Shown in pieces: positions 2,718 through 12,733 of a stretch of 12,733 nucleotides of DNA (position 1 is its first letter; the number at the start of each line of letters is the position of its first letter). Under the pieces are notes generated by a model. That model was not told the DNA's origin. It searched no databases and worked only from the letters and a program-made list of their open reading frames with translations. This DNA is from a virus. The stretch lies in the UHGV virus genome UHGV-0125529; one strand, given 5' to 3'. Both the position numbers and the translations under genes were made by a program.

Positions 2718-3425
2718 TCACGAACTTTTCAGCCACTCCCTTGCCTCGATGTCATCCAGATGGCGAGATTGCTTCAGAATACCAGCCACATACTCCACCT
2801 TTGCTACTTGATGATAAGGCAACGTTATTGGCCTGTGGTCTTGGTTGATGCTTGTAAATTGGTATTCTCCATCTCTGTCATAGCCAAGAACCTTAATCAT
2901 GTTGTGTCCTTCAACGGTTCTGACAAACACCTCATCACCCGGGAATACTTTGGTGTTAGGCTCAATGAGTACATATTCTCCTGATTTTATTCTGGGCCAC
3001 ATGCTGTCTCCTTTCACACGAAGGCCAAAGGCATCTGGATCATCGCTATAAATTTTGAGCCACCCATCGCGCTCTTCGGTCATCTCGATGGCACCATCAA
3101 CACCAAGAATTGCCTCACCAACCACGCGCACTAACCCTTTTTTTAATTTGCCAACAAATGAAAGAGTATCTTCATCATTCGCTCCATTTAACGAAGTGCC
3201 GTGCTGAAGCCAAACAACATCAACGTTTAGAAATTTCGCAAGCGCATTCATTTTTTCCTGACGCGGTAAAGACTCAGCATTAAACCATTTGCTAACGCCT
3301 TTGGACGAAAGAGAAAGGGCACGGGCTATAGCCATTCCCCTACCATGTTCATCAAGACCAGCTTCTTTACAGGCTTGCGCTAGCCGCTGGGCGAATTCTT
3401 TGCGCACTTTTTCATTCTGAACCAT
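2718..3425 (-). CDS. cI: CI-like prophage repressor (N-terminal HTH, C-terminal S24/LexA-type peptidase domain)
   Basis: 235 aa; N-terminal HTH (GMAIARALSLSSKGVSKW); C-terminal VKGDSMWP motif typical of the S24 peptidase catalytic serine with a downstream lysine; divergent from the cro-like gene across a 78-bp operator region. Confidence 0.85.
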   Translation of the reverse strand: MVQNEKVRKEFAQRLAQACKEAGLDEHGRGMAIARALSLSSKGVSKWFNAESLPRQEKMNALAKFLNVDVVWLQHGTSLNGANDEDTLSFVGKLKKGLVRVVGEAILGVDGAIEMTEERDGWLKIYSDDPDAFGLRVKGDSMWPRIKSGEYVLIEPNTKVFPGDEVFVRTVEGHNMIKVLGYDRDGEYQFTSINQDHRPITLPYHQVAKVEYVAGILKQSRHLDDIEAREWLKSS

Positions 3426-3489
3426 GAGTACGATACTAAAGCACTTGCAAAAACTTTCAGTTCAATCATAATGCGTACTGAAAGTACGA
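3424..3489. promoter_or_regulatory. OR operator cluster: three palindromic sites about 24 bp apart
   Basis: Sites AGTACGATACT (3427-3437), AACTTTCAGTT (3451-3461) and the perfect 15-bp palindrome CGTACTGAAAGTACG (3474-3488); centres near 3432, 3456 and 3481. Located between the divergent cI and cro starts, the classic OR3-OR2-OR1 layout. Confidence 0.5.
3445..3472 (+). promoter_or_regulatory. Candidate PR promoter
   Basis: -35 TTGCAA (3445-3450), 16-bp spacer, -10 CATAAT (3467-3472); the predicted start site falls on the perfect palindrome at 3474-3488. Confidence 0.5.
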
Positions 3490-3503
3490 AAAAGGATATC
3501 CCT

Positions 3504-3731
3504 ATGCAAAATCTTGATGAGCCGATTAAAGGTGTCGGCATCCCTGAAGTTGCGAAGGCTTGTGGAGTTAGCGAAAGGGCTGTCTATAAGTGGCTCAAAA
3601 ACGGCTTCCTCCCTAAGACTGAGTTTTTTGGGAAAACGAAATACGCATCAAAAATCGAAGAGATTTCTGGTGGCAAATATCAAGCAAGCGAAATGCTTGA
3701 AATAAGCAAAAAGAACCTTCTGGCTGCATAA
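3504..3731 (+). CDS. cro: Cro-like HTH DNA-binding protein
   Basis: 75 aa from ATG 3504 (MQNLDEPIKG...), RBS AAAGGA 7 nt upstream; HTH segment IPEVAKACGVSERAVYKWLKNG. The in-frame ATG at 3471 lies inside the predicted PR -10 and is probably not used. Confidence 0.7.
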   Translation: MQNLDEPIKGVGIPEVAKACGVSERAVYKWLKNGFLPKTEFFGKTKYASKIEEISGGKYQASEMLEISKKNLLAA

Positions 3732-11360: not shown

Positions 11361-11879
11361 ATGGGCATAAGAGAACTAAACCTCACCAAAGAACAGCACG
11401 ATTGGCTGAATGGCTGGCTTGAACTGTGGGGCGCATGGGTTTATTCAGGTCGTCTGGAAAAGCGCATGAGCAGCGTAATAGCGAAGTTCATGGAGAGCGT
11501 AGAGCCGGGAAGAGTTATGACAAGACCAATGTGTAATGATGATGATGGAATGTTGATTTCTCAGGTCGTCGATTCCGTCATGTACATTGACAAGAAAGCC
11601 TTTGGCATCCTCCTCAGCTACTACGCTCATGGTTCATCTAAGAGAGCAATTGCATCCTACTATCACGCGACTGCAAAGCCACGCAAGATGTGTGGACGCG
11701 GTGGCGAGGGATGGAGAAAACCTTCACTGGCAACCTGTAGAAACGAAATTGACGATATCCTGAAAGCGTCATTATTTGTTTTGTACCAACCAATGCAAAA
11801 TGCTTTCAAAATGCGTAAACGTGTTGAGAAAGTTAAGCATGTTGCTGTTAAAAGCCTTGACATGCAATTAGCCATTTAG
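11361..11879 (+). CDS. Q: Late-gene antiterminator Q (phage 82 / QuuD-like family)
   Basis: 172 aa, RBS GGGAGAAG; motifs WGAW near the N-terminus and RPMCNDDDGMLISQVVD resemble the Q family found in phage 82 and E. coli QuuD; sits after ninG and before a strong promoter, as Q does in lambdoid phages. Confidence 0.8.
   Translation: MGIRELNLTKEQHDWLNGWLELWGAWVYSGRLEKRMSSVIAKFMESVEPGRVMTRPMCNDDDGMLISQVVDSVMYIDKKAFGILLSYYAHGSSKRAIASYYHATAKPRKMCGRGGEGWRKPSLATCRNEIDDILKASLFVLYQPMQNAFKMRKRVEKVKHVAVKSLDMQLAI
11847..11876 (+). promoter_or_regulatory. Candidate late promoter PR' (Q-utilisation region)
   Basis: Perfect -35 TTGACA (11847-11852), 18-bp spacer, -10 CATAAT (11871-11876), overlapping the 3' end of Q. 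Confidence 0.5.
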
Positions 11880-11896
11880 CCATAATTAGAGGGTAA

Positions 11897-11939
11897 GCTG
11901 CCGTTAGTGACTCTTAAGTTGCAACGGTGGCTTTTTTTA
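11897..11939 (+). terminator. Candidate tR'-like terminator, about 50 nt downstream of the PR' start
   Basis: Imperfect hairpin GCTGCCGTT ... AACGGTGGC (includes G-U pairs and a large loop) followed by TTTTTTTAT. Confidence 0.4.
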
Positions 11940-11942
11940 TTT

Positions 11943-12017
11943 GGGTCAGTCGTATAAAGGTCATTACGGAAGGCTGTTAACCTTCTTATCGTGGTTCGAT
12001 TCCCGCTACCCGCTCCA
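11943..12017 (+). tRNA. tRNA-like element, probably degenerate (Asn-type GUU anticodon arm)
   Basis: Perfect anticodon stem-loop GAAGG-CTGTTAA-CCTTC (11969-11985; U33, anticodon GTT, A37); D-arm-like CGTA-N10-TACG (11951-11968); T-loop consensus GGTTCGATTCC (11993-12003) followed at canonical distance by CCA (12015-12017). The T-stem and acceptor stem pair poorly, so it may be a pseudo-tRNA. Confidence 0.3.
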
Positions 12018-12030
12018 GATTTATTATCAG

Positions 12031-12053
12031 GCTCGCTTCGGCGGGCTTTTTTT
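12031..12053 (+). terminator. Rho-independent terminator
   Basis: GCTCGC-TTCG-GCGGGC hairpin (one G-U pair) followed by TTTTTTT. Confidence 0.65.
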
Positions 12054-12185
12054 GTATCTGCGCCACGCCCGGCGCATATCAACCACAGAGCCTTTCGGGG
12101 GTGAGCTTACGGAGTGGTCAGTGTGACTTTCTCTGTGGGCAGATCGCTCCCGGGCGTTGGCTCACCCACCCAAAGGAACGTCACG

Positions 12186-12617
12186 ATGTTTGGTATTTTT
12201 GGTAAAAAAGCCCGCCGAGCGGCAGTGGAAATTAAAAAGTTTGAGAAACGTGATCTGGCACAGGCGGTTATTAATGCTGCCTATCTGGTGGCCTATGCAG
12301 ATGGTGAATGTGAGGCTTCAGAGAAAGCGAAGATCGAGCAGGTCTTGCGTAACCAGCCTGCGTTGTCCGCGTTTACGTCAGAAATTAATGCGATTAGCGC
12401 AACCATTATCGGTCAGCTGGATACGAACTTTAAAATTGGTCGTCGAGCGGCGTTACGTGAGATCGAGGATGTGAAACACGATACGCGTGAAGCGGAAGAC
12501 GTGCTGGATGTGGCGGTGGCCATTGCCGAAGCAGACGGCGAAATAGAGCCGGAAGAGCGCAAGGTGCTGGAAGAGATTGCCGGTGTCCTGGGCCTTCGTC
12601 TGGAGAATCATCTGTGA
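12186..12617 (+). CDS. TerB-like (tellurite-resistance TerB family) domain protein
   Basis: 143 aa from ATG 12186 (RBS AAGGAA 8 nt upstream; track lists a GTG start at 12114). Two acidic repeats of the TerB type (LVAYADGECEASEKAKIEQ and AIAEADGEIEPEERKVLEEI). GC-richer than the phage genes upstream. Confidence 0.65.
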   Translation: MFGIFGKKARRAAVEIKKFEKRDLAQAVINAAYLVAYADGECEASEKAKIEQVLRNQPALSAFTSEINAISATIIGQLDTNFKIGRRAALREIEDVKHDTREAEDVLDVAVAIAEADGEIEPEERKVLEEIAGVLGLRLENHL

Positions 12618-12625
12618 CGGTAAAA

Positions 12626-12733
12626 ATGCGTCTGGCTGTGGTTGCGCTCCTGCTGTTTCTGGTGGTGATGGTGGACTTCAGCAGCCGGATAATGTCAGTG
12701 CTGGCTGACGGTGTGCTGGTGGCGGGGGGAGGG
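12626..12733 (+). CDS. Membrane or secreted protein, 5' fragment only (runs off the window)
   Basis: ATG at 12626 eight nt after the TerB-like stop; strongly hydrophobic N-terminus MRLAVVALLLFLVVMVDF...; weak RBS; truncated by the window end. Confidence 0.35.
   Translation, partial: MRLAVVALLLFLVVMVDFSSRIMSVLADGVLVAGGG

Follow-up and report, generated by a model that had tools for sequence, protein, structure and literature searches.

Is the tRNA-like element that lies just downstream of the late antiterminator gene of virus genome UHGV-0125529 a tRNA gene, the remnant of one, or the trace of another event? The window, that is the whole 12,733-nucleotide stretch of DNA analysed here, ends in the late-control region of a lambdoid prophage, whose features are compiled in Table 1. 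Gene Q, promoter PR', terminator tR' and the start of the element match one-to-one the annotations of phages Sf6 and L. The GenBank record of Sf6 describes the stretch homologous to PR' as 'nearly identical to phage 21 late promoter' and has qut and a phage-21-type tR' annotated on the homologous bases. This late-leader stretch is 97-98% identical among P22-like phages in BLAST alignments. The tR' hairpin has a predicted energy of -21.1 kcal/mol (z = -4.5; no shuffled sequence is as stable), and the element starts at 11943, four bases past the T-rich tail of the terminator (T7-A-TTT). On the other side, the second terminator-like hairpin folds at -12.3 kcal/mol (z = -2.7), and the segment 12018..12053 that holds it is identical to the sequence found 3' of tRNA-Gly in JLK-2012, NMBU-W12E19 and others. 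Counterparts of the cargo gene that follows are annotated as TciA in JLK-2012 and as TerB family protein in RefSeq; some E. coli prophages have a tRNA-Ile or a tRNA-Arg upstream of the same TerB gene. The position between two terminators just downstream of Q and PR', proposed in the initial annotation of the locus, is correct (tR' 11895-11938, second hairpin 12029-12048), and the element lies directly 3' of Q, PR', qut and tR', where lambdoid and P22-like phages have their late-leader tRNA module. The span 11880-12060 delimited in that annotation also includes the -10 box of PR', the qut/tR' region and the downstream terminator.

Table 1. Features of the late-control region at the end of the window, with the three segments that compose the tRNA-like element.
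Feature	Coordinates	Strand	Evidence
Q, late-gene antiterminator of the phage-21 / P22 gp23 type, 172 aa	11361..11879	+	ORF; Pfam Phage_antitermQ, E = 1.3e-25; homologues annotated in Sf6 and phage L
PR' late promoter (TTGACA, 18-nt spacer, CATAAT); overlaps Q at its 3' end	11857..11886	+	Promoter scan, 11/12 consensus positions
Late leader: qut region, then tR' (hairpin 11895-11933, T7 11932-11938)	11884..11942	+	Fold; Sf6 record
Hybrid positions 1-50, uniquely tRNA-Asn(GUU): 5' acceptor, D-arm, anticodon arm, variable loop, first three T-stem 5' bases	11943..11992	+	Identity to JLK-2012, Sf6 and phage L
Crossover microhomology GGTTCGA (T-stem and T-loop, standard G52-A58), common to both parents	11993..11999	+	In-register exact run
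Hybrid positions 58-75, tRNA-Gly(UCC): T-loop end, T-stem 3', acceptor 3', U73, CCA	12000..12017	+	Identity to the tRNA-Gly 3' end of JLK-2012, continuing into the trailer
tRNA-Gly trailer and second intrinsic terminator (hairpin 12029-12048, T7 12047-12053)	12018..12053	+	Terminator scan; fold
tciA, cargo gene that follows the tRNA module; TerB-family protein of 143 aa	12186..12617	+	Pfam TerB, E = 3.9e-16
tciB, DUF3927 small membrane protein gene, cut by the window end	12614..12733	+	Pfam DUF3927, E = 1.3e-11; TciB in JLK-2012

The tRNA-like element covers positions 11943-12017 (+), 75 nt that end with CCA at 12015-12017. The anticodon stem-loop and D-arm-like hairpin described initially are present: the anticodon arm GAAGG-CUGUUAA-CCUUC displays U33, anticodon GUU and A37, and the D-arm GUAU/UUAC forms three pairs with a U-U mismatch. 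The T-loop GGTTCGATTCC is found at 11993-12003, at canonical distance from the CCA as had been noted. The Rfam tRNA model (RF00005) matches 11943-12012 (+); its score of 32.6 bits exceeds the gathering threshold of 29, with E = 0.0012 when the whole window is searched. This hit is marginal, and tRNA is the sole Rfam family above threshold anywhere in the window. In a permissive Rfam scan of 11800-12250 the only other signals are sub-threshold chance matches (TarB, isrB, rsmX, Bp1_684). The covariance-model search that the initial annotation called for supports its suspicion, yielding a match above threshold together with an extensive similarity to tRNA. Judged from its sequence, the resemblance of the element to a tRNA is far beyond chance.

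Comparison with deposited phage genomes, for which BLAST returned 342 records, identifies the tRNA genes from which the element derives. The alignment of its 5' part with phage tRNA-Asn regions is highly significant (E = 9e-56). Phages of the P22-like and lambdoid groups (Sf6, ST64T, L, BTP1 and many others) match positions 11880-12007 at 97-98% identity over their annotated tRNA-Asn, and every one of these matches ends inside the T-loop. The remainder past the T-loop is covered, among the phage matches listed, by JLK-2012 only, in two pieces. The annotated order in JLK-2012 is Q, tRNA-Asn, tRNA-Thr, tRNA-Gly, tciA, tciB. Positions 1-57 of the element are identical to the 75-nt tRNA-Asn(GUU) (57/57), positions 51-75 are identical to the 75-nt tRNA-Gly(UCC) of JLK-2012 (25/25), and the composite has no other substitution. 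These values (57/57 Asn, 25/25 Gly) establish its homology to the genes of the late-leader tRNA module and show its composition from two parents.

The junction can be placed exactly. The heptamer GGTTCGA occupies positions 51-57 in each of the 75-nt parents, and the hybrid is also 75 nt long. In the intact cluster the Asn and Gly genes start 159 bp apart, a spacing found in JLK-2012, NMBU-W12E19, UTME-3, 2013C-4830 and CB9615. Since the parents are in register, the deletion amounts to exactly 159 bp and is itself in register; it removed the 3' quarter of the Asn gene, the whole Thr gene and the 5' three-quarters of the Gly gene. Alignment shows that the window equals JLK-2012 minus one 159-bp gap; on the 5' side the identity reaches into tR', and on the 3' side it takes in the terminator, tciA and tciB. 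The attributes of a hybrid tRNA gene are present, namely parents that are neighbours in related genomes and an in-register junction within a short shared sequence. No whole tRNA is left in the leader and tRNA-Thr is entirely gone: the element is a degraded derivative of the late-leader tRNA module and not a working member of it. We conclude that it is very probably a deletion-derived Asn/Gly hybrid tRNA pseudogene. The 'decaying phage tRNA-Asn' proposed initially is accurate for the 5' 57 nt as to their origin, but these carry no point mutations and the 3' part belongs to tRNA-Gly(UCC). The initial annotation had overlooked this second parent, which supplies the CCA and the 3' strands of both T-stem and acceptor stem. 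A K71-77 tRNA-Asn variant considered as a possible intermediate proved to be an Asn allele only.

The initial annotation had also evoked an old recombination or integration junction. The first term is the closest of its readings, the junction being that of a deletion between neighbouring tRNA genes; the second finds no support. Integrases commonly target the T-arm and the 3' end of tRNA genes. With its junction in the T-loop, the hybrid resembles in this respect a scar of site-specific integration, in which a mobile element leaves a partial, att-type tRNA duplication after inserting into a tRNA gene or excising from one. Such an origin is contradicted by the alignment with the intact cluster and we hold it for extremely unlikely: both halves come from neighbouring genes of one cluster in related phages, the in-register junction corresponds to a loss of 159 bp, exactly the distance from the Asn to the Gly start, and both flanks are collinear with JLK-2012. 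No integrase or foreign insert adjoins the element in the window or in E. coli SCU-104; in the latter genome no integrase is annotated within 12 kb on either side, and nothing corresponds to an att site or an integration scar. The SCU-104 prophage is identical to the window around the element and mosaic elsewhere. The chance that the hybrid is an assembly or sequencing artefact, generated by collapse of the tandem tRNA repeats, is practically nil. Short-read assemblers can collapse tandem similar genes, but here the shared repeat is just 7 nt and the parents are identical at 41/75 positions, which is far too little for a collapse. The same junction moreover recurs in six IMG/VR contigs and in four complete genomes whose laboratories and countries of origin differ, and three distinct upstream contexts precede it.

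The chimeric composition accounts for the structural defects of the element. The poor pairing of T-stem and acceptor stem noticed initially is borne out in the canonical register, with 2/5 T-stem and 3/7 acceptor pairs (13/21 over the cloverleaf, at +0.5 kcal/mol), because the Asn 5' strands face the Gly 3' strands. A 7-bp acceptor stem and a 5-bp T-stem followed by the discriminator and then CCA are not found. The loss of pairing is manifest on comparison with the parents: tRNA-Asn has 19/21 cloverleaf pairs, -19.1 kcal/mol and 55.3 Rfam bits, and tRNA-Gly 20/21 pairs, -25.4 kcal/mol and 55.4 bits, while the tRNA-Thr of the cluster scores 49 bits. The 32.6 bits of the hybrid are obtained by Infernal in a shifted register, with one position deleted in each 3' strand, which leaves C5 and U50 bulged and gives 18/19 pairs at -11.3 kcal/mol. 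Pairing works in this register because the Gly 3' end resembles the Asn 3' end save for two 1-nt gaps, and megablast of the hybrid returns the same gapped alignment of Gly tail to Asn tail as Infernal does. The shifted register puts a G at the discriminator position, followed by CUCCA instead of CCA. The minimum free energy fold of the hybrid, at -15.8 kcal/mol, is not a cloverleaf, and its stability is that of shuffled sequences (z = 0.04).

Gene-finding programs and covariance scores treat the element differently. Its score is sufficient for a tRNA gene in the covariance model while lying 23 bits under that of either parent. ARAGORN, which calls Asn and Gly in relatives, detects no tRNA gene in the window nor in ten other loci bearing the hybrid. 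RefSeq leaves the identical 75 nt unannotated in four complete E. coli genomes, while in intact alleles it annotates all three tRNAs; dedicated tRNA gene finding, whether by ARAGORN or in the RefSeq annotation, does not recognise the element.

The initial annotation had also considered a non-canonical functional tRNA, and these data bear directly on the idea that the chimera is a working tRNA-Asn of this kind. In the shifted register its acceptor stem and its T-stem would each contain a single bulged base; it would read with GUU, present a G discriminator and be charged by AsnRS after 3' trimming or CCA repair. Anticodon GUU and G73 are the main identity elements for AsnRS. The Rfam match above threshold is in exactly this register, with its 18/19 pairs and favourable energy, and the allele is unchanged through 11 copies. 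Against it, the discriminator is followed by CUCCA, so that the encoded 3' tail is two bases too long; the score is reduced by 23 bits relative to either parent, and both ARAGORN and the RefSeq annotation ignore the element. The shifted cloverleaf is also 4.5 kcal/mol less stable than the competing non-cloverleaf fold, which is itself no better than shuffles, and the shifted pairing is a by-product of the similarity between Gly and Asn 3' ends, not of compensatory evolution. We regard a working tRNA-Asn as very unlikely; from the predicted folds, the hybrid is likely non-functional as a tRNA.

The following course of events best explains the pseudogene. The ancestor would have had the order Q, PR', qut/tR', tRNA-Asn(GUU), tRNA-Thr(UGU), tRNA-Gly(UCC), terminator, tciA, tciB, with three tandem tRNAs in the leader of the late operon, and some E. 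coli prophages, like phage JLK-2012, still show an arrangement of this ancestral type. A single event of recombination or slippage would have joined the Asn and Gly copies of the T-arm heptamer GGTTCGA, either by slipped-strand mispairing or by short-homology recombination, leading to the 159-bp deletion; unequal crossover between two phage genomes would give an identical product. We infer that the direction of change was from an intact cluster to the deleted form. The outcome would be a gene of 75 nt, a normal tRNA length, combining the 5' acceptor and T-stem strands of Asn with the 3' strands of Gly. As the two halves are not complementary, the acceptor/T-arm minihelix should be unable to form. 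The remnant is probably still transcribed, within the Q-antiterminated late transcript that reads through tR', and would be neither processed by RNase P and the 3' processing enzymes nor aminoacylated. Since RNase P and the synthetases require an acceptor/T-arm helix, which it lacks, the remnant would stay as inert leader sequence. The phage would accordingly have lost its Asn, Thr and Gly tRNAs and, to judge from the spread of the allele behind several Q alleles, apparently have stayed viable.

The hybrid is not confined to the window. It occurs at 100% identity over its 75 nt in 4/5,426 complete E. coli genomes (SCU-104, LZSFT34, PM4-5 and EC100), its junction is present in 6 IMG/VR contigs, and it is found in no deposited phage genome; a search with the exact 29-nt junction against one genome per species gives 0 matches. 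With coverage set to at least 80%, BLAST of the 75-nt hybrid does not single out hybrids, because megablast bridges the Gly-derived tail to the Asn tail with two gaps, and the four matches at 100% are those that mark hybrids. The intact Asn-Thr-Gly arrangement exists in thirteen complete E. coli genomes. The IMG/VR contigs that have the Gly 3' end with its trailer divide into 13/19 with the Gly 5' half and 6/19 with the Asn 5' half. Hybrids make up 4/17 of the Gly/tciA-module loci in E. coli and 6/19 in IMG/VR, about a quarter to a third, which is more than a strongly deleterious lesion would be expected to reach. Intact tRNA-Asn is present in at least 120 IMG/VR contigs, and the hybrid is rare by comparison. 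ARAGORN assigns to the surveyed loci 91 Asn-Thr pairs, 13 Asn-(Thr)-Gly clusters, 3 Asn alone and 10 cases with no tRNA; these ten are the hybrids.

The upstream surroundings of the hybrid are of three kinds: a 519-bp Q of the phage-21 type, a Q of 489 bp, and a Q with an HNH gene after it. Homology to the window sets in only 47-51 nt before the hybrid. Intact clusters are also found behind similar contexts. All hybrid copies are identical (n = 11) and the event is demonstrably recent. This identity implies that there is no accumulated decay to prove a loss of constraint. The T7 tract (versus T6) in tR' is common to all hybrids and occurs also in two intact alleles, so it is not diagnostic. 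The 730 nt downstream carry 2-5 substitutions relative to the window, in hybrid loci and in the intact JLK-2012 and NMBU loci alike. The intact cluster contains four direct repeats of at least 7 nt, including a 10-nt repeat of the Thr and Gly T-loops. Hybrids that would arise at other microhomologies have 0 matches in IMG/VR, be it for the Thr/Gly T-loop (10-nt repeat), the Asn/Thr T-loop or the Asn/Gly D-arm (7-nt repeat); there is thus no sign that T-loop deletion is a frequent, recurrent process at this locus. The evidence leans toward one or a few historical events, and toward later movement of the hybrid between Q contexts by homologous exchange within the conserved stretch of ~100 bp formed by tR' and the Asn sequence.

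The chimera might instead have been kept as a functional RNA other than a tRNA, for instance as an uncharged decoy for anticodon nucleases such as AriB of PARIS, or as an element for processing or stability of the late leader. The whole Asn anticodon stem-loop is intact, the phage Asn arm reads U36-A-A-C-C-U41 where the E. coli target has UAAUCC, and within its module the allele is not rare. The conservation signal is nonetheless identity by recent descent and nothing beyond, and no predicted structure is stabler than random. AriB appears to depend for recognition on features distant from the anticodon loop, and the deletion also takes the Thr gene, which would be the more valuable anti-PARIS component (PMC12409363). 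We give this role very little credence. A broader version, in which the chimera is alive in the PR' transcript under Q antitermination, either as a misshapen but chargeable tRNA-Asn (G73) or as a nuclease-resistant uncharged decoy (UAACCU versus host UAAUCC), is highly improbable. If true, either role would explain the spread behind three contexts and the quarter-to-third share of the module.

The importance of the finding is modest. The locus should be labelled as a hybrid pseudogene and not as tRNA-Asn, and it illustrates that two genuine tRNAs, once fused, can give rise to a marginal covariance match. It is also a documented case of recombination microhomology provided by the conserved T-arm sequence inside a phage tRNA cluster. 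Matched prophages with intact and hybrid alleles would be convenient pairs for testing codon supply versus counter-defence as the role of a widespread module.

That module is the Asn/Thr(/Gly) set of phage 21, P22-like and lambdoid phages (Sf6, ST64T, L, BTP1, SfI, PS3 and JLK-2012), which occupies the same slot, after Q-PR'-qut-tR' and before the cargo or lysis genes. Leader and first 57 nt are 97-100% identical to the window in these phages, and the 3' 25 nt together with the terminator, tciA and tciB are identical in JLK-2012. The module phages carry two or three intact tRNAs that fold separately, whereas the window has one 75-nt chimera in place of all three. An Asn-Thr pair in tandem after Q has been described in SfI, Sf6, ST64T, PS3 and phage 21, and the study of SfI noted a supply of tRNA for codon ACA and no clear reason for the Asn gene (PMC3636060). 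A counter-defence role is a candidate function of the intact module and a reasonable lead. The initial annotation was right that lambdoid phages have tRNA genes at this position, namely the Asn/Thr(/Gly) module, but the Stx phages that it put forward are not the relatives concerned. Stx-converting lambdoid phages such as 933W carry the tRNA genes ileZ-argN-argO between Q and stx, likewise in the Q-dependent late leader, but these are different tRNAs (Ile, Arg, Arg). None of the best BLAST matches at the element is to these Stx-phage tRNAs, the annotated matches listed being tRNA-Asn or the Asn/Thr/Gly cluster.

The element shares with generic tRNA pseudogenes and att remnants a partial tRNA character, a sub-par covariance score and the absence of annotation as a gene. 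It differs from them in having neither point-mutational decay nor integration behind it, being the clean deletion product of two parents. We found no published description of this hybrid allele. The formation of a hybrid by deletion is a known kind of event, and the element is an ordinary decay product. McClain and Foss (Cell, 1984; 38:225-231) reportedly obtained hybrid tRNA genes in phage T4 through unequal recombination between neighbouring tRNA genes; those hybrids are said to have been laboratory mutants selected by function, at least some of which gave stable tRNAs. There too, two tRNA genes of one phage cluster were fused in register at a short shared tRNA sequence with loss of the intervening DNA. 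Unlike the T4 hybrids, the hybrid of the window is a natural allele in temperate-phage DNA, and its two halves do not pair.

Of 18 phage tRNA-Gly copies that are intact otherwise, seven carry substitutions in the 5' half. They fall into three groups (L014, L023 and L142; L016 and L086; L093 and L141), and three types of substitution are distinguished: the first combines C8 to T with G10 to A, the second is a G-to-T change within the anticodon stem, and the third a G-to-C change within the T-stem. These substitutions hint that constraint on the phage tRNA-Gly is relaxed in prophages. The intact parents of the Asn/Gly hybrid have imperfect stems. The acceptor stem of the intact phage tRNA-Asn has a U4-U mismatch of its own (equivalent to window positions 11946/12010), and a U13-U22 mismatch is present in the D-stem of both tRNA-Asn and tRNA-Gly, which have an identical D-arm core, CGTATAA...ATTAC.

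The JLK-2012-type tRNA-Thr(UGU) is not called by ARAGORN and gives 49 bits with Rfam, whereas the Sf6-type tRNA-Thr gives 61.5 bits; by eye, just three Watson-Crick pairs are found in the anticodon stem of the former. It contains U36-AAUC-A41, the sequence reported as the cleavage site of AriB, the anticodon nuclease of PARIS defence, in its E. coli targets; the Sf6-type tRNA-Thr has UAAGCG instead. RefSeq annotates tRNA-Asn and tRNA-Gly in E. coli O55:H7 CB9615 and nothing in the 84-nt Thr slot between them, where the tRNA-Thr differs from that of JLK-2012 by a single C-to-T change over the 76-nt gene, located in the 3' strand of the acceptor. The Thr slot of phage L holds a feature annotated 'tRNA-Leu (TAA)', which scores only 42 bits, is not called by ARAGORN, and looks like a further degraded tRNA of the same module.

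The ten other loci bearing the hybrid are identical to the window from position 11943 onward, except at two positions within 12658-12729, inside tciB, where the window differs from all of them. Compared over its whole length with the prophage of SCU-104, the window is a mosaic. The TerB-family gene tciA, 3' of the hybrid, is intact in the window and is a pseudogene in PM4-5 and EC100. Some alleles have an HNH endonuclease gene between Q and the late-leader terminator tR' with its tRNA module, and in JLK-2012 Rfam gives a strong hit to the sRNA STnc100 3' of tciB.

Coordinates of module features in the collected loci
Feature	Locus	Coordinates	Remark
tRNA-Asn	L001 (JLK-2012)	1549-1623	intact
tRNA-Thr(UGU)	L001 (JLK-2012)	1629-1704
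tRNA-Thr	L002 (Sf6)	1343-1418
'tRNA-Leu (TAA)'	L003 (phage L)	1343-1414	Thr slot
Thr slot	L014 (CB9615)	1369-1452
tciA pseudogene	L012 (PM4-5)	3293-3724	internal stop
tciA pseudogene	L013 (EC100)	3293-3724	internal stop
HNH gene insertion	L011 (LZSFT34)	2484-2996	hybrid locus
HNH gene insertion	L017 (UTME-3)	684-1196	intact locus
STnc100	L001 (JLK-2012)	2609-2781	Rfam, 107 bits, E = 2.9e-23; equivalent position beyond window's end

Window 11974-11985 covers the hybrid's anticodon loop and 3' stem, both derived from tRNA-Asn, and here the phage arm reads U36-A-A-C39-C40-U41. The corresponding sequence of E. coli tRNA-Asn is given as UAAUC|C (PMC12409363). For tRNA-Lys, cleavage by AriB is abolished by a change at position 39. 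On this basis the phage tRNA-Asn may be nuclease-resistant.
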